Source: a virus (Duplodnaviria; Heunggongvirae; Uroviricota; Caudoviricetes). Taken from it: a stretch of DNA of 39,225 bases. The stretch lies in the IMG/VR virus record IMGVR_UViG_2703718821_000012, positions 1 to 39,225 of that record; one strand, given 5' to 3'. This document shows, one piece after another, positions 5,765-33,751 of the stretch; positions within the stretch are counted from its first letter, which is position 1, and every line of letters begins with the position of its first letter. Below the pieces are notes generated by a model that was not told where the DNA came from, made no database searches, and saw nothing but the letters and a program-made list of their open reading frames with translations. Position numbers and translations under genes: made by a program.

Positions 5765-6235
5765 CTAATAAGACACCCAGTTTTCTGTTTCTTGGTTGTG
5801 TCCAAAGTTATATTCAATATCTGGTGTTGATGTATCAATATTCTTCATCCCATCAACAAGAGTTGATACAACAGCCAAATCTTGTTTGATTCTCATTAAA
5901 TGGTATTTCTTCCGGCGCAATAAACTTTCAATGGCAAGTTTCTTCGTCGGGAATGCAAAAGATCTTTCTGCATTTTTTGCTACTTTCTTAATTGCATATC
6001 TATTTCTCCTTTGTTTCCATTCCTGTAACCACTGATTTGGTGTTGGTTTAAAATTAACAATCCAATGCGCAGGAACCAACCATGCATAATGCTCTGTCTG
6101 ATGAAAAGCTATATATTGAAGTGCGAATATTTTGATTCCATCTTCTTCAACTGTCGCCTGGAATCTCCAGAAAACAGGCATTCCATCATGTTCAGTTTCT
6201 GATTCAGGAAAAGGTACGCTCCATGATTTTGTCAT
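5765..6235 (-). CDS. Hypothetical basic protein (156 aa), AT-rich accessory gene
   Basis: ATG preceded by GAGGTGAG; AT-rich codon usage versus neighbours; sits between N and cIII where lambdoid phages carry accessory and exclusion genes. Confidence 0.6.
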   Translation of the reverse strand: MTKSWSVPFPESETEHDGMPVFWRFQATVEEDGIKIFALQYIAFHQTEHYAWLVPAHWIVNFKPTPNQWLQEWKQRRNRYAIKKVAKNAERSFAFPTKKLAIESLLRRKKYHLMRIKQDLAVVSTLVDGMKNIDTSTPDIEYNFGHNQETENWVSY

Positions 6236-6278
6236 ATCTCACCTCAAATAATTCAGTGCGGTGTTTATTCTCTTGTTT

Positions 6279-6309
6279 ATGCCAAAAATAAAGGCCGACT
6301 ATGCGGCCT
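6279..6309 (-). terminator. Rho-independent terminator candidate (minus strand)
   Basis: Minus-strand hairpin AGGCCGCATAGTCGGCCT followed by TTATTTTTGG immediately after the 6314..6736 gene. Confidence 0.5.
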
Positions 6310-6313
6310 GAAA

Positions 6314-6736
6314 TTACTTAACCAATGATGCTGCATATTCAATTAGGAATAACTTAGGTGCAAGCCAAATCTTCAACCATTCGAAATTGAAGGCGATAAT
6401 TGAAACGCCAATAATTGAGCCAAATACAGGAGCAAATACGGTGCATATATCGTAATAAAACGAAGATATAAAATATCTATCATTTGGACATCCATCGAAA
6501 GACGTCCATCTCTCGCCATTATTTCTTGCCGTTCTTGCAAAACTAGGAAGTTTTATTGCTGCAATTAAAAGCAACAACCCAGTCACTTGGGAAAGTGCGC
6601 TATGGACAAAACTCCATATTAGCAACTGATGAACAACATCAGGAATCTGTGCCTGGCTAAATGAAACAGCCGCGTCTATTCCATTGCTGGCTTTTTGCAG
6701 TAGTTCTACGAGAATCTTGTTTGCTTGTTCTTCCAT
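6314..6736 (-). CDS. Two-TM membrane protein (140 aa), possible SieB-like exclusion protein
   Basis: ATG preceded by GAGGTGA; hydrophobic segments VTGLLLLIAAIKLP and VFAPVFGSIIGVSIIAFNF; immediately downstream of N; AT-rich. Confidence 0.55.
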   Translation of the reverse strand: MEEQANKILVELLQKASNGIDAAVSFSQAQIPDVVHQLLIWSFVHSALSQVTGLLLLIAAIKLPSFARTARNNGERWTSFDGCPNDRYFISSFYYDICTVFAPVFGSIIGVSIIAFNFEWLKIWLAPKLFLIEYAASLVK

Positions 6737-21445: not shown

Positions 21446-23611
21446 ATGGCCGACGAAAACAGACTCAATTCCATTCTGTGTAAGTTTGACGCAGACTGGA
21501 TGGCGAGCGATGAAGCCAGAACCGAGGCGACAAATGACCTGTATTTTAGCCGAGTGTCGCAATGGGATGACTGGCTATCAAACTACACCACCCTGCAATA
21601 TCGCGGACAATTTGATGTTGTTCGCCCGGTGGTCAGGAAGCTGGTCGCAGAGATGCGCCGGAACCCTATCGACGTTCTATTCAGACCAAAAGACGGAGCT
21701 AATCCTGATGCTGCCGATGTGCTGATGGGGATGTATCGTACTGATATGCGCCATAACACGGCAAAAATTGCCGTTAACGTTGGCGTTCGTGAGCAGATAG
21801 AGTCCGGCGTTGGTGCATGGCGTCTGGTCACGCAGTACGAAGACAACGACCCAACAAGCAACAATCAGGTAATCCGACGCCTGCCAATCCATGAAGCCTG
21901 CTCACACGTCATATGGGACGCCAACAGCAAGCAGATGGATAAGAGCGACGCTAAGCACTGCACGGTGATTAACGCCTTGTCACGCAATGGCTGGAAAGAG
22001 TTCGCTGAGGATTACGGTATTGATCCGGATACCTTGCCATCTTTCCAGAATCCGAACGATACATGGCTGTTTCCGTGGGTATCGAATGATGTCGTCTACG
22101 TCGCTGAGTATTACGAGGTAGAAGAGAAGAAAGAGAACGTCTTCATCTACCGCGACCCGCTGACAGGTGAGCCAGTCAGCTATTACCAGCAGGATATCAA
22201 AGACGTCATCGACGACCTGGCTAATCGTGGATTCATTAAGGTAGCAGAGCGTAAGGTCAAGCGTCGGCGTGTGTATAAGTCGATCATCACCTGCACGCAG
22301 ATACTGAAAGACCGCGAGAAGATAGCTGGAGAGCATATCCCAATCGTTCCAGTGTATGGCGAATGGTCATTCGCTGGTGACAAGGAGTGCTACGAAGGAG
22401 TGGTAAGGCTGACGAAAGACGGTCAACGCCTTCGTAACATGATCATGTCATTCAACGCCGATATTGTTGCTCGTTCACCGAAGAAGAAACCGACCTTCTT
22501 CCCTGAGCAAATCGAAGGCTACGAATACATGTACGGTGGAAATGATGACTATCCGTACTATCTGCAGAACAGGACCGATGAAAACGGTAACGACCTGCCG
22601 ATTGGTCCAATCTCCTACATGGAAAACCCTGAAGTGCCGCAAGCCAACGCTTATATGCTTGAGGCTGCCACCAACTCAGTGAAAGAGGTGGCTAGTCTTG
22701 GTGTGGATGCGCAGGCAGCAAACTCTCAGGTCGCTTTCGATACCGTCAATCAACTGAACATGCGGGCAGACCTTGAGACATACGTGTTTCAGGATAACCT
22801 GGCTACCGCAATGCGACGTGATGGCGAGATTTATGCCTCAATGGTCAACGATATTTATGACGTTCCTCGTCATGTAACGCTGACACTTGAAGATGGTAGC
22901 GAGAAAGACGTTCAACTCTACGCGCAAGTTGTCGATTACCAGTCCGGTAATGTGGTCACACTCAACGACATTCGTGGTCGCTATGAGTGCTATACGGACG
23001 TTGGGCCATCCTTCCAGAGCATGAAGGAACAGAACCGCGCAGAGATTCAGGAGTTACTCACCAAGGTTCCGCAAGGTACTCCAGAGTTCCAGATGCTGAT
23101 GCTGCAATACTTCACGCTGCTTGACGGTAAAGGCGTCGAGATGATGCGAGAGTACGCGAACAAGCAACTGGTGATGATGGGGCTGAAGAAACCAGAAACA
23201 CCTGAAGAGATGGAGATGGTACAGCAGGCTCAACAGCAGCCGCAGCAGCCATCAGCAGAGCAAATTCAGGCGCAGGGTATCCTTCTGCAAGGTCAGGCTG
23301 AATTGCTCAAGGCAGAGAACCAACAGGCGCAGATTCAGGTTGAAGCCGCCAAGGTTGAAGCCCAAAACCAACTCAACGCCGCGAAGATTGCGGAAATCTT
23401 CAACAATATGGACCTCGACAAGCAGGCAGAACTGCGTGAGTACCTCAAGCTCGTAGGTCAATTCCAGCAACAGCGCAGCAAAGATGCTCGTGCTAACGCT
23501 GAGCTGCTTCTTAAAGATGCAGACCAGACTCATTCACAACGCATGGATTTCGCGAATCTTATGCGTCAAGTTCAAATCCCCTCCGGCGGAGTAGCCGAGA
23601 CACCTCAATAA
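21446..23611 (+). CDS. Portal protein (P22 gp1-like)
   Basis: 721 aa [43 protein letters not shown]...; Gln-rich C-terminal barrel region; order terL-portal-scaffold-coat. Confidence 0.93.
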
Positions 23612-23624
23612 GAGAGAGTTAATC

Positions 23625-24536
23625 ATGGACCAAACCACCGACATTCAGGCTTCTGAAGAATTAACCCTGCCCGGCAATCATGCAGCGGCATCTGCTGATG
23701 GCTTAGTTGTCGATAATGCCAACGACAACGCAGGTCAGGAAGAAGGCTTCGAGATTGTCCTGAAAGACGATGAGAAACCAAAACAAGACCCGGCAACTAA
23801 TGCTGAATTTGCCCGTCGCCGCATCGAACGCAAACGCCAGCGTGAGCTTGAGCAACAGATGGAAGCGGTTAAGCGGGGAGAGTTGCCGGAGCACCTGCGG
23901 GTGAACCCTGAGTTACCAAAACAACCAGACCCTAACGATTATCTTTCCGAAGACGCACTGGCTAAGTACGACTATGACCAGAGCCGCGCACTGGCTGCCT
24001 TCCAGCAGGCAAACAGTGAATGGCAGATCAAGGCTATGGACGCACGAAGCCAGGCTGTCGCCGAGCAGGGTCGCAAAACTCAGGAGTTCACCCAGCAATC
24101 AGCGCAATACGTCGAGGCAGCCCGTAAGCACTACGACGCAGCGGAAAAGCTCAATATCCCTGACTATCAGGAGAAAGAGGATGCATTCATGCAACTGGTG
24201 CCGCCAGCAGTCGGTGCCGACATCATGCGCCTCTTCCCGGAGAAATCCGCTGCTCTCATGTATCACCTTGGTGCTAATCCTGAGAAAACACGCCAGTTGC
24301 TGGCGATGGACGGGCAATCCGCGCTGATTGAACTCACTCGACTGTCAGAACGTTTAACTCTCAAGCCTCGAGCCAAACCTGTTTCAGAAGCCCCGTTACC
24401 TGATGAACCCATTCAGGGACACGCTGTTGCTGCAAATATCTCTGCGATTGAAAAGCAGATGGAAGCAGCAGCAAACAAAGGGGATGTAGAGACATACCGC
24501 AAGCTCAAGGCGCAACTGAATAAAGGAATTCGATAA
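23625..24536 (+). CDS. Scaffolding protein (P22 gp8-like)
   Basis: 303 aa; [18 protein letters not shown]...[31 protein letters not shown] and C-terminal [18 protein letters not shown] match P22 scaffold. Confidence 0.9.
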
Positions 24537-25831
24537 TGGCATTAAATGAAGGTCAACTGGTCACGTATGCTCTGGATGAAATCATCGAAACCGTCCAGAA
24601 CCTGACGCCAATGGCGTCCAAAGTGACAAAATACACCCCTCCGGCAGAATCCATGCAACGTTCAAGCAACACCGTGTGGATGCCTGTTGAGCAGGAAGCG
24701 CCAACTCAGACTGGCTGGGATTTAACTGGCAACGCAACCGGGATTCTGGAACTCTCCGTGAAGTGCAACATGGGCGATCCGGATAACGATTTCTTCGAGC
24801 TTCGTGCAGATGACCTGCGTGATGAGCGTTCTTACCGTCGCCGCATCCAGGCATCCGCCAAAAAACTGGCGAATAACATTGAGTCAGCAATTGCCAAACA
24901 GGCAACCGAAATGGGCTCACTTGTTGTTCACGATACCCGCGCAATTGGTCCATCTACTGGCCTGTCTGGTTGGGATTTTGTGTCTGATGCAGAGCGCCTG
25001 ATGTTCTCCCGCGAACTCAACCGCGACATGGGCATCAGTTACTTCCTGAACCCTGACGATTACCGCAAAGCAGGCCGCAACCTGGTAGATGGCGACATCT
25101 TCGGGCGAGTTCCTGAAGAAGCGTATCGCAACGGTACTATTCAGCGTCAGATTGCTGGCTTTGATGAAATCCTTCGCTCACCGAAACTTCCGGCAGTTAC
25201 CAAGTCAACCGCTACTGGTGTAACTGTTTCTGGTGCGCAGAAGTTTAAGCCGCAGGCATACACCCTTGATACCGATGGTAACAAAGAGAACGTCGACAAC
25301 CGTGTTGCAACGGTGACCGTATCCTCCACCACCGGATTTAAGCGCGGCGACAAAATCAGCTTCACTGGTGTGAAATTCCTGTCTCAGATGGCGAAGAACG
25401 TGCTGACTGATGACGCGACTTTCTCAATCACCCGTGTGATCGATGGTACTCACATCGAAATCACGCCGAAGCCGATTGCACTGGATGACGCGTCACTGAC
25501 AAAAGAAGAGAAGGCTTACGCTAATGTAAACACATCTCTTGCTAATACCACTCCGGTAAACGTTCTGAACGTGGCAACAACCACCGCTAACGTGTTCTGG
25601 GCTGATGACTCAATCCGTCTGCTGTCTCAGCCGATCCCGGTAACCCATGAACTGTTTGCTGGTATGAAAACGTCTTCCTTCAGCATTCCTGGCATTGGTG
25701 TTAACGGCATCTTCGCAACGCAGGGGGATATCAACACTCTGTCTGGTAAGTGCCGTATTGCTGTGTGGTATTCAGCATGTGCTGTACGACCAGAGGCAAT
25801 TGGTGTTGGTCTGCCTAACCAGACCGCGTGA
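24536..25831 (+). CDS. Major coat protein (P22 gp5-like)
   Basis: 431 aa [54 protein letters not shown]...[10 protein letters not shown] aligns along full length with P22 coat. Confidence 0.95.
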
Positions 25832-25837
25832 TAACCA

Positions 25838-25863
25838 GAGGGAGCTTCGGCTCCCTTTTCTAT
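25838..25863 (+). terminator. Rho-independent terminator after coat gene
   Basis: Hairpin GGGAGC-TTCG-GCTCCC followed by TTTTCTATT. Confidence 0.6.
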
Positions 25864-25874
25864 TGGAGATACCA

Positions 25875-26462
25875 ATGAGCGTAATGATTTTTCAGGCTGG
25901 CGGAGATACCAAAATCTGGGGACGCAAGCTGAAAACGAAAACCGTTGATCCTGATGATGTAGCTGTGCACTTAGCAAATGGCTGGTATAAGCACCCTGAC
26001 GATGTTCCTGATGATCCTCTTGTTGGTGATCAAATTGGGAGTGTTGGCGGAGGTGAAACTTCCCCAGTTGATATGGGCGAAGTGTCCGACGGTTATCACA
26101 CTTTTAACGAGCTTTACGCTCACCGAGTGCGCCTCTTCTCATCGCTGATGCATGCTTACGCTGAGCTTTCGTGGTGGTCTCGCAAACACAGTGACGGTGA
26201 AGAGTGGGATGGCTGGATCATTGCTGGTATCACCACTCCAGAAGGCGAAATCACTTATCACCTACCTGTTGAAGAAATCGAGTTCCTTCCTGAAGGTACT
26301 GAGCTTGAGTTCGGGAAAGAGTGGGATGGTCATGAAGCAAATGATGTTCTTGGACGACTCCTGAGTTTGCGTCCGGCCATTGCAGAGCCAGAAGAAAAAC
26401 AGCGTAAAAAGACTGGTCGAAAACCTAAGGCGGCAGCAGATGAACCTGACAACGAAGGGTGA
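25875..26462 (+). CDS. Hypothetical acidic protein (195 aa) inserted between coat and gp4 genes
   Basis: ATG preceded by GGAG 8 nt upstream; [20 protein letters not shown]...[27 protein letters not shown]...[19 protein letters not shown]; no P22 counterpart recalled at this position. Confidence 0.6.
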
Positions 26463-26940
26463 TTTAGTTCTTGCGGCATTACGTAAGCTCGGTGTGGCAT
26501 CAAATGCCACGTTAACCGATGTCGAACCGCAGTCTATGGAAGACGGCGTCAACGACCTTGAAATGATGATGGCTGAATGGCTTGGCGGTGATGCGTCACC
26601 AGGTATCAACGTTGGCTACATTTTCGCTGATGCAGATGTCGCTCCAGATCCTGGCGATGAACACGGTTTATCAAATAACGCTATCAATGCCGTCATTTTC
26701 AACCTTGCCTGCCGCATTGCTCCGGATTATGCGCTGGAAGCGTCTGCAAAACTTATAACCACTGCCAGATACGGGAAAGAGCGACTCGTCAAACTGTCTG
26801 CAATGGACAGAGCAAAAGCCGCTAAATGTAAGTCCGGTTATCCAAACCGTATGCCTGTTGGTAGCGGTAATCAGTTGGCGAAGTGGAAAGGTTGGAATTA
26901 CTTCCACCGGAAGGAACCTTGCGATAACGGGAGCGAATAA
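26440..26940 (+). CDS. Tail accessory / head-completion protein (P22 gp4-like)
   Basis: 166 aa [47 protein letters not shown]...[14 protein letters not shown] matches P22 gp4. Confidence 0.85.
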
Positions 26941-28358
26941 TGTCGATTCAGCAACTTCCGCTTATGAAAGGTGTCGGGAAAGACTTCCGAAACGCCGACT
27001 ATATCGACTATCTGCCAGTGAATATGTTGGCTACACCCAAAGAAATCCTCAACAGCAGCGGATATCTTCGCTCATTCCCGGGCATTGCCAAACGTTCTGA
27101 TGTGAACGGTGTATCTCGCGGCGTCGAGTACAACATGGCGCAGAGTGCTGTTTATCGCGTGTGTGGGGGCAAGCTGTATAAGGGCGAAAGCGAAGTCGGT
27201 GATGTTTCCGGAAGTGGTCGCGTATCAATGGCTCATGGTCGGACATCTCAGGCTGTAGGCGTTAATGGTCAACTGGTCGAGTATCGCTATGATGGCACGG
27301 TTAAAACCGTCTCAAACTGGCCTAAAGACAGCGGTTTTACTCAGTATGAGTTAGGCTCAGTCCGCGACATTACACGCTTACGTGGGCGTTATGCGTGGTC
27401 AAAAGACGGCACGGATTCATGGTTTATCACTGACCCTGAAGACGAATCGCATCCTGACCGTTACAGCGCACAATATCGCGCAGAATCGCAGCCGGACGGT
27501 ATCCTCGGCATCGGAACATGGCGAGACTTCATCGTCTGCTTTGGTTCATCGACGATTGAATATTTTTCCCTGACTGGGGCAACCACCGTTGGTGCCGCTT
27601 TGTATGTCGCACAGCCATCACTGATGGTGCAGAAAGGCATTGCCGGAACTTACTGCAAAACGCCGTTTGCTGATTCCTATGCGTTTATCAGCAATCCGGC
27701 AACAGGTGCTCCGTCTGTATACATCATCGGCTCCGGTCAGGTATCACCAATCGCCAGCGCGAGCATTGAGAAAATCCTCCGCTCCTACACTGCTGATGAA
27801 CTGGCTGATGGCGTGATGGAATCTTTGCGGTTTGATGCTCATGAATTGCTGATTATCCATCTTGCGCGCCATGTCCTCGTATACGACGCATCTTCAAGCG
27901 CCAATGGTCCGCAATGGTGTGTACTGAAAACAGGCCTGTATGACGATGTGTACCGCGCTATCGACTTCATTTACGAAGGCAACCAAATAACGTGCGGCGA
28001 TAAGCTTGAATCGATGACAGGGAAATTGCAGTTCGATATCAGCAGCCAGTACGACAAGCAGCAGGAACACCTGCTGTTTACTCCGTTGTTCAAAGCAGAT
28101 AACGCCAGAGTTTTCGACCTTGAAGTTGAATCTTCAACTGGCGTTGCGCAGTACGCCGACCGCCTTTTTCTCTCTGCAACCACTGACGGAATCAATTACG
28201 GGCGTGAGCAGATGATTGAGCAGAATGAACCGTTCGTTTACGACAAACGCGTTTTGTGGAAGCGGGTAGGGCGCATCAGGAAAAATGTTGGCTTCAAATT
28301 GCGCGTTATCACGAAGTCACCTGTCACTCTGTCTGGCGCTCAGATAAGGATCGAGTAA
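26940..28358 (+). CDS. Tail accessory protein (P22 gp10-like)
   Basis: 472 aa, same length as P22 gp10; N-terminus [49 protein letters not shown]. Confidence 0.85.
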
Positions 28359-29206
28359 TGGCTGATTCGAATCTCAATGAGCCGGTAATCATTCAGGCTA
28401 CACGACTCGACACATCAGTCCTTCCACGCAATATCTTCTCGCAGTCATATCTGTTGTACGTTATCGCACAGGGTACTGATGTTGGTAACGTGGCGAACAA
28501 GGCCAACGAGGCCGGACAGGGCGCTTATGACGCACAAGTCAGGAACGATGAGCAGGATGTGATTCTGGTCGATCACGAAATTCGACTGGCATCGGCTGAA
28601 GCGAAGATACAGGACCACGAAACAAGGATCACTAACGCAGAAGCGGCGATAGTCGGCCTTGATTCACGATTAACGACAGCAGAAAACGATATTGATTACC
28701 TGACGGATGAAGTTGTCGCTATTCAAAACACGCTTTCAGACCATGAAACGCGCATCGATGCCCTGGAGTATGCCACTACTCGCAAGAAATCAGAGGTTGT
28801 TTACTCTGGCGTATCTGTAACTATTCCGACAGCGCCTACTAACCTTGTTAGCCTGCTGAAAACGCTCACGCCGTCATCAGGCTCGTTGGCACCATTCTTC
28901 GACACCGTTAACAACAAGATGGTTGTGTTCAACGAGAACAAAACCTTGTTCTTCAAGCTGTCGATCGTCGGGACGTGGCCCAGCGGAACCGCCAACAGAT
29001 CAATGCAGCTAACCTTTTCCGGCTCTGTTCCTGACACGTTGGTCAGCAGTCGTAATGCGGCGACAACAACCGATAACATCCTGTTAGCTACGTTTTTCAG
29101 CGTGGATAAAGACGGCTTTCTTGCCACAAATGGCAGCACGTTAACCATTCAGTCGAATGGTGCGTCGTTTACTGCCACAACCATCAAAATCATTGCGGAG
29201 CAGTAA
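28358..29206 (+). CDS. Tail needle protein (P22 gp26-like N-terminus with divergent C-terminal knob)
   Basis: 282 aa; N-terminus [68 protein letters not shown] matches gp26; heptad repeats then a different C-terminal domain. Confidence 0.8.
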
Positions 29207-30365: not shown

Positions 30366-31754
30366 ATGGCTACTTGGCAAGGATCAAATGGCGGATTGTT
30401 AGCTGGTATCGGCGGCGTCAACTCAAACGCTCCGAGCGTAAATGAGATCGGCAATACGCTTCAGTTTATCAGGCAGAACAATGATATTGAGCGTTCAGGC
30501 GCTAACAATGTTGGGCTGACTGCTTTGCAAGGCATTTCAGGTATTACCGGGGTGTTTCAGCAGGAAAAGCAGGCTCAGCGGCAGAAAGAATTTCAGCAGG
30601 CATACGCTAATGCTTATGCGTCTGGTGATCGCGGTGCTTTGCGTCAGTTGGCTACTCAATATCCAGACCAGATTGAATCCGTTCGTAAAGGCATGGGATT
30701 CATTGATGAAGACCAACGCAATTCTATCGGCACCTTAGCGGCTGGCGCACGCCTTGCGGCATCGTCTCCAGAAGCAATGCAATCATGGCTGCAAAACAAC
30801 GCCAAGGAACTGACTCGCGTCGGTGTTGACCCTAACAGCGTTGCTCAGATGTATCAGCAGAATCCTTCAGGATTTGGTGAGTTTGTTGATCACCTTGGGA
30901 TGGCTGCTCTTGGTCCGATTGATTACTTCAATGTTCAGGACAAGATGGCTGGTCGTGAAATTGACCGAGGCAGGCTGGCAGAGACAATCCGCAGCAATCA
31001 GGCTGGAGAGGCGCTAACAGCACGAGGTCAGAACATCACGATGCGCGGTCAGGACTTATCTGCTTCTACTGCGCGACGTGGGCAGGATTTGGCAATGCAG
31101 CGAGCGTCAACAAGAGGAACCGCTGGGAATGATGAGCGTACAGTTCAGTTATCAGATGGCAGAACTGTAACGGTAGGAGGGAAGCTTCATGGCGCTGGGG
31201 CTAATGCGTTCTACGAAGGTATCGACAACGAGGGGAATATGGTTCGCGTCCCTGCCAGTTCAATCGCTGCGCCGGCAACATCGTCTGCATCAGCACAAAA
31301 CTATGCCATGAAGAAGGATATCGACGCGATCGCAAATGCAGACGCTTCTGCTCTCGATTTCATGACAGGAATGACAGGCGGTGCAGGTAATCCAGCAATT
31401 GGTGCTGATGTTCGCAGCCGATTAACGGGAAAAGAGCAGCGCCAGTTATATAACTCAGCACAACGTATTCAGGGCAGAATGCAGAATCAGGGTGTGGCGG
31501 CAGCAAGGGACATGGGTGCCAGTGGTATTAACACCGTTGCAGAAGCGAAGATGTATTTTCAGGGGATGCCGCAGGTTGACTATTCAAGCCCGGAGGCTAT
31601 GCAGCAGTCGATTCGTGAGATTCAGGAATACACCAACAATTACAACCAACAATATAACGTTAATGTTGGTAAATCTCAGCGGAAGCAATCTCAACCTGCA
31701 CAGGTATCACAGCCAGCAGCCAGCAGTAACTTTTCTTCACTATGGGGTGATTAA
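30366..31754 (+). CDS. Ejection protein (P22 gp20-like)
   Basis: 462 aa; synteny and size close to P22 gp20 (471 aa). Confidence 0.75.
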
Positions 31755-33751
31755 TGGCTAAAGCATGGAAAGATGTTATCGCCTCTCCACAGTATCAGGC
31801 GTTAGCACCAGAACAAAAAGCGCAGGCTCAGGAGCAATACTTCAATGAAGTCGTGGCCCCGCAAGCCGGAGAAAATGCAGAGCAGGCTAAGCAAGCTTTC
31901 TATGCTGCCTATCCATTGCCATCTGTGCAGCCAGTGGAGACACAACAACCAGAAGCACAGCAACAACCACAGCAAAGTGGATTTGTGTCTGATCTTGGTG
32001 AAGCCGTGAAAGAAACTGGTCGCGGACTGGTGCAGGCTGGCGTGAACGTGGCAAACATACCTGCATCAGTTGCCGATGCTGTAACAAGCGCGGCGGCTTG
32101 GGCTGGCGGTAAACTCGGAATTGGCGATGGGACATATCACCCAGCGCCACGAGTAACAACGCAGGGATTAGAGCAGGACTTTGGCCTTCAGCAAGGTGCG
32201 CTGACTCCACAAACGACAGAGGGAAGGGTATTTGCTGAAGCATTGCCTTACCTCACTCCTGCTGGCGTTGAGAGAGCGGCAGCACAGGCACCAACACTTG
32301 CTGGTCGAATTGCTCAGGGGGCAACTCGCCTTCTAGCAGAAAACGCAGTTGGATCACTTGCTGCAAATAGTGCGAAAGATGATGCGGAAGCACTCGCCAC
32401 CGATTTAGGCGTTGGTGTACTTGCTGGCGGTGCTATTAACGCTGCCGGACGTGGATTAGGTGCTGCTTATCGTGGTGTTCGTGGTTCTATCGCGCCAGAA
32501 GCACAGCAGGCTATCAGATTTGCAGAGCGTGAAGGCGTTCCTCTGCACACCACAGACCTGTTACAGCCTACTTCCCGCGTCGGGAAAATGGCGCAGACTA
32601 CAGCAGAAAATATCCCTCTGGCTGGCACAAGCGGAATGAGAGCAACGCAACAGGAAGCGAGAAGCCAGTTGGTGCAGAGATTTGCTGATAAATTCGGTGA
32701 GTATGATCCAGCGGTTGTTATTGACAGCCTTAAAGCGAAAACATCAGGAATTCGTCGTGCCGCAGGTAATCGACTGGAGCAGGTTCAGAATGCTATGGCT
32801 GGAGTAAACATTCAGCCTGCGCGAGCAATTCAGCAGATTGATACAGAAATATCTAATCTGCAGAAGCTTGGTAAGGTCGCCGATAACGAGACTATTTCAA
32901 AACTTCAGTCCTATCGTGATGAGCTTGTTCGCAATGCTGGTCCTGATGGTCCGGTAAATCTGGATTTGAAGCAATTAAGCGATCTGCGCAGCCAGTTCAG
33001 AATGGACGTGAAGGGGGAACGACCAGTGTTACCAAACCGTTCCGATGCTGCCATTCAGCGCGTTTACAAGGCGATGACAGACGATATCAATGGTGCCATT
33101 AATCAGAATCTTGGCAACGATACTCTCCGTAAATATCAGCAGGCCAATGCCGTATACGCTGACGAAGCGGCGAAACTAAAGAATACCAGGCTGAAGAATG
33201 TTCTCATGAAAGGCGACCTGACGCCGGAAGTTGTCAACAACATGCTATTCAGCAAGAACAAATCGGAAATTAAGACGCTGTATAACTCAGTTGGTCGTGT
33301 TGGCAGGGCGCAAATGCGCAATGGCATCATTGGAAAGGCGATGGAGAAATCTGGCGGATCCCCTGACCAGTTCCTTCGGCAGCTTAACATCCTGCAAAAC
33401 CAGACTGGCATCACATTTAAGGGGCAGGACGCTGCTTATCTGAAAGGATTGAAAAATTACCTTCAGTCCACTCAGCAGGCAGCAAAAGCGGCAGTAACAA
33501 CACCAACAGGGCAGCAAACCATCCCGTTCATTATCGGGTATGGGACGGCAATGAACCCGGCGACAACTGGCGCAGCAGTAAGCTACGGACTTCTTACTCG
33601 CGCCTATGAGAGCGAGCCATTCAGAAATGCAATGCTCCGAATGGCAAACACCCCACGAGGATCAACAGCGTTTGAGAAAGCCATGCAGCAGGCACAAAAG
33701 GCAATTAACGCTATGACGCAGGGGGCTAAGTCTGATGCATTGTCAGAATAG
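31754..33751 (+). CDS. Ejection protein (P22 gp16-like)
   Basis: 665 aa; last gene of the ejection protein trio; Ala/Gln-rich. Confidence 0.75.
   Translation: MAKAWKDVIASPQYQALAPEQKAQAQEQYFNEVVAPQAGENAEQAKQAFYAAYPLPSVQPVETQQPEAQQQPQQSGFVSDLGEAVKETGRGLVQAGVNVANIPASVADAVTSAAAWAGGKLGIGDGTYHPAPRVTTQGLEQDFGLQQGALTPQTTEGRVFAEALPYLTPAGVERAAAQAPTLAGRIAQGATRLLAENAVGSLAANSAKDDAEALATDLGVGVLAGGAINAAGRGLGAAYRGVRGSIAPEAQQAIRFAEREGVPLHTTDLLQPTSRVGKMAQTTAENIPLAGTSGMRATQQEARSQLVQRFADKFGEYDPAVVIDSLKAKTSGIRRAAGNRLEQVQNAMAGVNIQPARAIQQIDTEISNLQKLGKVADNETISKLQSYRDELVRNAGPDGPVNLDLKQLSDLRSQFRMDVKGERPVLPNRSDAAIQRVYKAMTDDINGAINQNLGNDTLRKYQQANAVYADEAAKLKNTRLKNVLMKGDLTPEVVNNMLFSKNKSEIKTLYNSVGRVGRAQMRNGIIGKAMEKSGGSPDQFLRQLNILQNQTGITFKGQDAAYLKGLKNYLQSTQQAAKAAVTTPTGQQTIPFIIGYGTAMNPATTGAAVSYGLLTRAYESEPFRNAMLRMANTPRGSTAFEKAMQQAQKAINAMTQGAKSDALSE

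Follow-up and report, generated by a model that had tools for sequence, protein, structure and literature searches.

The 195 amino acid (aa) gene lying between the coat gene and gene 4 of a P22-like phage genome is the full-length allele of a conserved, dispensable gene found at this position throughout the P22-like phages, being equivalent to epsilon34 gene 6, to orf186 of phages L and ST64T, and to P22 orf69. The genome (Lederbergvirus-type) is IMG/VR record IMGVR_UViG_2703718821_000012, all 39,225 nucleotides (nt) of which were analysed and are referred to here as the window. The gene, hereafter the slot gene, is always located between a conserved stem-loop following the coat gene and gene 4, the start of which it overlaps. 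It is not an extra insertion, as a preliminary description of the sequence had proposed, and belongs to a family long known in P22-like phages. The middle of the protein, in which that description had recognised no domain, corresponds to the Pfam family PF25311 (WDGH). The fusions and gene neighbours of this domain in other phages suggest that WDGH counters host defence, the likeliest mechanism being the binding or cleavage of a nucleotide-derived signal; from this association, we place the probability of such a role at roughly 0.45. The slot gene, its parts and its immediate surroundings are as follows.

25875-26462, + strand: slot gene, long WDGH allele of 195 aa (ATG at 25875, stop codon at 26460-26462).
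25875-26015, + strand: N-domain, residues 1-47, a beta-hairpin and helix (alignments; phrog_1175 over residues 1-44; AlphaFold2 per-residue confidence, pLDDT, 89-97).
26016-26075, + strand: linker, residues 48-67, acidic, glycine-rich and predicted to be disordered (AlphaFold2 pLDDT below 50 for residues 50-60).
26076-26369, + strand: WDGH domain PF25311, residues 68-165 (Pfam E 1.3e-39; AlphaFold2 pLDDT 90-98).
26370-26459, + strand: C-terminal tail, residues 166-195, with one PE unit, the motif KKxGRKPKA and an isoelectric point (pI) of 8.4.
25837-25863, + strand: post-coat stem-loop, intrinsic-terminator-like (fold, conservation, and annotation in L, P22 and Sf6).
25865-25868, + strand: Shine-Dalgarno sequence GGAG, 6 nt ahead of the ATG (read from the sequence).
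26440-26462, + strand: overlap of 23 nt between the slot gene and gp4 (sequence).
24536-25831, + strand: coat gene (gp5-like), the upstream neighbour (Pfam P22_CoatProtein, E 3.9e-166; TGA stop at 25829-25831).
26440-26940, + strand: gp4-like head-completion or tail-adaptor gene, the downstream neighbour (Pfam P22_Tail-4, E 3.9e-58; ATG at 26440).

Judged from its sequence matches, the slot open reading frame (ORF) is a real gene: besides the Pfam match, PHROG 3769 aligns over its full length (E 1.9e-100), and 1384 homologues are present in the databases. Both PHROG 3769 and phrog_1175, the latter confined to residues 1-44, are families of unknown function. The clean hairpin after the coat gene, the acidic 195 aa ORF with its own ribosome-binding site and the overlap with gp4, all noted in the preliminary description, are present in the sequence, with the product having a pI of 4.7 and containing 38 acidic (D and E) versus 20 basic (K and R) residues. 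An AlphaFold2 model built with 65 homologues has a mean pLDDT of 86.6, with the tail being of low confidence. The length of the linker varies among homologues, and the basic KKxGRKPKA motif of the tail is common to the window, P22, L and APC_JM3.2.

Searching a phage collection with tblastn revealed full-length homologues of 59-62% identity occupying the slot in over 35 records; these include L (Orf186), ST64T (orf-186), ST104 (ORF54), epsilon34 and g341c (gene 6), SE1, ST160 and BTP1. The genes of L, ST64T, epsilon34, ST104 and BTP1 resemble that of the window in both position and four-part architecture, the identity of 59-62% extending over 97% of the protein's length and being 67% at the nucleotide level across the whole region. 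However, the window gene represents a diverged E. coli lineage, differing from the Salmonella phage genes in linker length and having a tail that matches the E. coli short alleles described below, rather than the Salmonella ones. The phage L record gives the order coat, terminator, Orf186 and gp4. The P22 annotation has a stem-loop (6102-6119) followed by orf69 (6135-6344), which overlaps gene 4; orf69 aligns to the first ~45 residues and the basic tail of the window protein, the WDGH middle being missing. The preliminary description had held that P22 has no gene here and proposed a comparison of P22-like genomes at the coat/gp4 junction. This comparison contradicts it, since the slot is occupied by orf69 in P22 and by full-length homologues in L, ST64T, ST104, epsilon34, g341c, SE1 and BTP1, and the gene is therefore not an addition. 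A P22 homologue with a known structural role had been named as the finding that would count against the proposal; the homologue exists, but orf69 has no known role.

The arrangement of N-domain, WDGH and tail is also found in Pantoea, Cronobacter, Serratia, Xenorhabdus, Hafnia, Erwinia and Klebsiella. In Sf6, the slot contains a terminator annotated as 't coat' and gene 6, encoding 61 aa. The N-terminal sequence of Sf6 gene 6 (L097:1686-1871) is unlike the N-domain of P22, L and the E. coli phages, and its basic tail (KRGRKAAD...), which overlaps the gp4 homologue, is similar. Conservation of the tail may be partly due to the gp4 ribosome-binding region rather than to the function of the protein.

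Much of this is already known, namely the position of the slot gene, its variable length and dispensability, the terminator preceding it and its middle domain, as a Pfam family. The epsilon34 paper states that the P22 homologue of gene 6 'is partly deleted', that the lengths of homologues differ markedly, and that the role of gene 6 is unknown and its P22 copy non-essential (PMC2629481); in the phage L paper, the description of orf186 is 'detailed function unknown' (PMC8022706). A literature search on P22 orf69 and ST64T orf186 found nothing beyond the phage L paper. Since the hairpin and the gene, variable length included, were described in P22-like phages between 1991 and 2020, the locus is ordinary as a genome feature, and the identical E. 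coli protein has already been named 'WDGH domain-containing protein' by NCBI.

Among sequenced phages, those nearest to the window are APC_JM3.2, IME10, Louie, Dewey, HZ41 and Bas106, matching it at 97-99% in the flanks of the gene but not in its interior; a megablast alignment to these relatives covers 43% of the query, in two pieces. The break-points define the following segment.

25870-26382, + strand: cassette swapped relative to short-allele phages such as APC_JM3.2 (blastn break-points at 25869/25870 and 26382/26383).

The flanks of this cassette are 97.8% identical to those of APC_JM3.2, whereas blastn gives no alignment for the interior. In APC_JM3.2, the slot holds an 88 aa gene, the N-domain of which is diverged and followed by a (PE)n repeat and a tail as in the window protein. 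We sampled 80 IMG/VR loci with a gp4 at least 98% identical to that of the window, 76 of them yielding a readable slot gene. A short allele of 74-102 aa was present at 65 of these loci, the alleles differing almost exclusively in the number of PE units (~1 to 15); the remaining 11 had the long allele containing WDGH (195-199 aa, one to three PE units). The long allele was found in 42 of 5426 complete E. coli genomes, 212 of which had any match (42/212), so that it is carried by about 14-20% of close E. coli relatives. RefSeq names it either 'WDGH domain-containing protein' or 'hypothetical protein' in E. coli, and the window protein is 99% identical to a cluster (P0001) with 1929 E. coli member sequences. 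The variation in PE number looks like slippage of a 6 bp repeat inside the coding region, just upstream of the gp4 start. The window itself has a single PE unit (26383-26400), and Tandem Repeats Finder detected no repeat in the window at the slot locus.

Hence P22 orf69 and the 74-102 aa alleles of APC_JM3.2, IME10, Louie and other E. coli phages share the slot, N-domain, basic tail and gene 4 overlap with the window gene but lack WDGH, the place of which is taken in the E. coli short alleles by the hypervariable (PE)n repeat. The idea of an extra gene recognisable by its presence or absence therefore survives in altered form: a cassette is indeed swapped between ~98% identical phages, but the gene is always there and only its interior, the N-domain and WDGH, is exchanged or lost. 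The WDGH cassette would accordingly be optional, gained and lost by recombination within the conserved flanks. The description of the gene as a moron fails on other grounds, there being no promoter-like site ahead of it, no terminator after it and a GC content in keeping with its neighbours (cassette 0.491, coat 0.514, gp4 0.491). Naturally occurring long- and short-allele E. coli phages, ~98% identical to one another, provide a ready-made comparison.

Such variability might mean that the interior is of little consequence. The ORF would then be a spacer controlling expression, which reloads ribosomes after the hairpin and hands them to gene 4, with WDGH or (PE)n being a tolerated passenger. 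The stop/start overlap with gene 4 is retained in every P22-like phage examined (23 nt in the window, 17 nt in P22 and L, 26 nt in Sf6), as this proposal would have it, and the length of the interior is highly variable, from 74-102 aa with 1-15 PE units to 195-199 aa; the P22 short form is reported to be non-essential, and Sf6 gene 6 combines a different N-terminus with a similar basic tail. However, a neutral passenger would be expected to decay, whilst WDGH appears to be under strong purifying selection in the window phage: relative to phage L, dN is 0.19 with dS saturated, meaning no dN/dS ratio can be given, and all the family-invariant residues are kept. The N-domain is likewise conserved at the protein level, with G9, G36, W37, H40 and P41 invariant across sequences only 26-49% identical, including P22 orf69 and the short E. 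coli alleles. We consider it unlikely that the gene is such a spacer.

A profile search with the N-domain recovered 377 proteins, the best 120 of which were all short forms of 44-84 aa without Pfam domains. No other cargo domain was attached to the N-domain among these best 120 of the 377 matches, WDGH being the only cargo seen.

The match of the window protein to PF25311 scores 134.8 bits, relative to a cut-off of 27, and spans model positions 1-97 of 97. All the columns that are invariant or near-invariant in alignments of 65 and 150 sequences are retained (SDGYHTF..ELY.HR, W.S..H.DG, YH, WDGH and R). The family is very large, a WDGH profile matching 3655 representative clusters (50% identity) at E <=0.001, with hosts including Listeria, Bacillus, Streptococcus, Lactococcus, Staphylococcus, enterics, cyanobacteria and actinobacteria. 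Across 150 of the representatives, 27 positions are at least 90% conserved; among them are His (five), Asp (three), Arg (two), Trp and Tyr residues, and the near-invariant residues include H75, H83, H105, H129, H153, D72, D107, D151, R84 and R161. In the AlphaFold2 model, the domain is a compact alpha/beta structure consisting of a long helix (residues 77-94), three strands and two short helices. The conserved set of residues looks like a ligand-binding or catalytic site.

Clues to what such a site might act upon come from the domains to which WDGH is joined. Fusion partners were counted per Pfam family among the best 150 WDGH representatives, such that a protein with two partners may count twice: Sequestin/crAss001_48 (PF21825) occurred six times, Lar restriction alleviation three times, and the Acb2/Tad1 hairpin and Tad2-like families once each. 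YodL, DUF551, zinc ribbons and an RNase_T-type exonuclease were other partners, seen as single cases. The individual architectures include a Tad2-like domain followed by WDGH and Sequestin (P0101), WDGH with Sequestin (P0107, P0077 and P0082), Lar followed by WDGH and a zinc ribbon (P0238), and WDGH with a 3'-5' exonuclease-type RNase_T domain (P0241). PF21825 is a 3'cADPR sponge that blocks type I Thoeris, and was itself found through fusions to Tad2 and Acb4 (bioRxiv 10.1101/2025.07.12.664507). The approach to sponge discovery that served for Sequestin, fusion or adjacency to known sponges, thus picks out WDGH as well.

The triple fusion P0101 is a protein of 265 aa (L006:6001-6798) from a Serratia prophage contig with a P22-type portal (Logan ERR3566460). 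Its gene is in the late region, downstream of the lysis genes (holin, endolysin and spanin) and upstream of the terminase region; therefore, sponge domains do occur in the late operons of this phage group.

Adjacent genes exhibit the same associations in four metagenomic temperate-phage contigs, L087 and L088 being 18-19 kb long, L089 50 kb and L090 53 kb. In L087, L088 and L090, the gene directly preceding that for WDGH is Tad2-like; in L089, the WDGH gene is itself directly followed by one for an Acb2/Tad1 hairpin, and a Tad2-Sequestin fusion is encoded at a distance of 3 kb. An apparent anti-defence cluster lies downstream of a Mu Gp12-like gene in these contigs (L089:1031-5846; L087:4057-5786; L090:4108-5630), containing Tad2-like, Tad2-Sequestin, WDGH, WDGH-Sequestin and Acb2/Tad1-hairpin genes in varying combinations.

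WDGH is therefore fused or adjacent to each of Tad2 (PF11195), Sequestin, Acb2/Tad1 and Lar, and is like them in being small, phage-restricted, dispensable and patchily distributed. These links offer a concrete and cheap hypothesis for a very large phage-borne domain family. The suggestion in the preliminary description of a late-expressed anti-defence factor thus becomes the favoured reading, albeit on circumstantial evidence drawn from these fusions and neighbours. Were it correct, a widespread family would be added to the anti-defence catalogue, and the variable spot in the P22 late operon would be explained.

Elsewhere, WDGH is found among small accessory genes and DNA methylases, and in the early regions of Lastavirus, Pavtokvirus and the Listeria phage A511; in the Staphylococcus phage phiSP15-1, the WDGH gene adjoins that for dUTPase. 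In most other phages, PF25311 members are stand-alone or have other partners, and lie in early or accessory regions, whereas that of the window is in the late structural operon. The Streptococcus phage IPP39 (L098:2408-2803) has a stand-alone WDGH gene in its head-morphogenesis module, between those annotated as 'minor capsid protein' and 'minor capsid protein 2', and is a second, unrelated phage group in which WDGH is found inside a structural operon.

A number of observations weigh against a counter-defence role, which the association suggests but which stays putative. By the comparisons made, WDGH appears to be without sequence or fold homology to any characterised sponge, signal-degrading enzyme or other anti-defence protein: the best match in the PDB had an E value of 0.38 when searched by sequence and 0.92 by profile, Foldseek found no match on the PDB at E <=0.001, and there were no matches for WDGH in PADLOC or NCBIfam. 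Nor does it have sequence or structural similarity to Tad2, Sequestin, Acb2/Tad1 or Lar. The pockets of known sponges are positively charged, but WDGH is an acidic domain (pI 4.5-5.3). At most 11 of the 150 representatives have an anti-defence partner, most having no recognisable partner, and the RNase_T exonuclease, YodL and DUF551 do not point to defence. The four contigs with adjacent sponge genes share their neighbours, including the Mu Gp12-like gene, and are hence approximately one lineage rather than independent cases. Placement in a late operon is not obviously suited to countering an early-acting defence, and the conserved N-domain and tail are left without explanation.

Searching BFVD matched only uncharacterised members of the WDGH family, and nothing relevant on WDGH or PF25311 was found in the literature searched. 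Several candidate relatives were rejected. Residues 93-149 (26151-26321) resemble part of human poly(ADP-ribose) glycohydrolase, but with an E value of 1.2 the match is non-significant and was judged to be chance; the resemblance is recorded since ADP-ribose-derived signals are among the candidate ligands. Acb5 homologues are mostly from actinophages, which those of WDGH are not, and the beta-rich hexamer described for Lockin does not resemble the WDGH model. In the case of the T4 protein TadIV-1, no T4-type phage was among the tblastn matches listed or the organisms most often hit, and there was no PDB match.

An alternative is that WDGH is an enzyme or binding module of nucleotide or nucleic acid metabolism, aiding replication or maturation rather than evading immunity. 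The near-invariant His, Asp, Arg, Trp and Tyr residues resemble an active or ligand-binding site in either case, and the fusion to an RNase_T-type 3'-5' exonuclease, the dUTPase gene beside that for WDGH in phiSP15-1, and the span of the family across Gram positive and Gram negative hosts, cyanophages and actinophages all accord with a metabolic function. However, the slot gene is dispensable and polymorphic in near-identical phages, which fits an accessory rather than a core role; the recognisable partners are mostly anti-defence domains, and the comparisons revealed no resemblance to any known enzyme fold. This makes metabolism a doubtful explanation, though the least so of those set against counter-defence.

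The preliminary description had also suggested a capsid-associated protein. The N-domain and basic tail might target the product to the head or portal, so that it would be packaged and possibly ejected, serving either as a structural protein or as an effector made in advance for the next cell. The position of the gene between the procapsid and head-completion genes, with late expression, would suit such a protein, as would a Lys/Arg-rich tail that could bind DNA, the location of the IPP39 WDGH gene and the nine unnamed extra phage proteins detected by mass spectrometry of phage L virions. Yet epsilon34, which encodes the long form, has virions that differ from those of P22 on SDS gels only in gp13, the tailspike and Dec; no species of ~21 kDa was reported, although one of low copy number might be missed. 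As, in addition, most WDGH genes are in non-structural accessory regions and the P22 homologue is non-essential, we regard a virion protein as improbable, more so than either the spacer or the metabolic role.

How the gene is expressed can be proposed from established lambdoid biology. RNA polymerase, Q-modified and terminator-resistant, would read through the hairpin and transcribe the slot gene along with the rest of the late operon, a proposal made because there is no promoter-like site ahead of the gene: a consensus scan, the only method applied, found no sigma-70-like site between the coat stop codon and the slot-gene ATG. Translation would start from the gene's own ribosome-binding site, and ribosomes would finish within the gp4 start region, thereby coupling the translation of gp4 to that of the slot gene. 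The WDGH module, going by its associations, might then bind or hydrolyse a nucleotide-derived immune signal, or otherwise neutralise defence, late in infection. The fullest form of this proposal is put forward more tentatively than the general role: WDGH would be a new phage counter-defence domain family, a sponge or hydrolase for a nucleotide-derived immune signal, carried as an optional late-operon cassette coupled to gene 4, and pairs of phages with long and short alleles would differ in their sensitivity to a specific host defence.

The hairpin through which the polymerase would read has a core formed by GGGAGC (25840-25845), a TTCG loop and GCTCCC (25850-25855), with the stem being extendable to 9 bp (25837-25858), and is followed by the T-run TTTTCTATT. 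It thus has the layout of a rho-independent terminator, with a GC-rich stem of 6-9 bp, a UUCG loop and a UUUUCUAUU tail directly after. The predicted fold has an energy of -19.2 kcal/mol (z = -2.5 versus dinucleotide shuffles), 5 of 200 shuffles folding equally well. A consensus terminator scan did not list this hairpin; we read this as the result of A-T and G-T extension of the stem consuming the T-run for which the scan looks. The same scan found no terminator-like site on the + strand between 25875 and 26940, hence the term 'terminator-flanked' used in the preliminary description applies upstream of the gene but not downstream.

The window, P22, L and APC_JM3.2 all have the hairpin at this position; two of its base pairs have changed in a compensatory manner, and the loop is either UUCG or UGCG. 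The window version differs from those of P22 and L by only two compensated base pairs. A stem-loop or terminator is annotated at the equivalent site in P22, L and Sf6. The Sf6 't coat' and P22 stem-loop are like that of the window in being GC-rich hairpins with a U-run, right after the major capsid gene and within a single late operon, and a likeness in location between the P22 stem-loop and those of HK97 and lambda has been pointed out. According to the phage L paper, this intra-operon terminator ends the procapsid module and its role is not known (PMC8022706). Taken together, the hairpin is terminator-like and can be regarded as a predicted intrinsic terminator.

The P22-like gene order around the locus is borne out by Pfam, which further identifies the following genes.

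21446-23611: portal (Pfam).
23625-24536: scaffold (Pfam).
26940-28358: gp10 (Pfam).

Beyond gp10, Pfam identifies a needle protein with an Sf6-type knob, gp14, gp7 and gp20. At the position of P22 gene 16, which encodes an ejection protein, is a 665 aa ORF (31754-33751) with no Pfam match at E <=1e-5, in contrast to the good family matches of the neighbouring gp7 and gp20. The tail needle (gp26-like, 28358-29206) differs from that of P22 in having a C-terminal knob of the Sf6 type (Pfam Phage_tail_NK, E 7e-109), and the late operon is therefore a mosaic of P22-type and Sf6-type modules.

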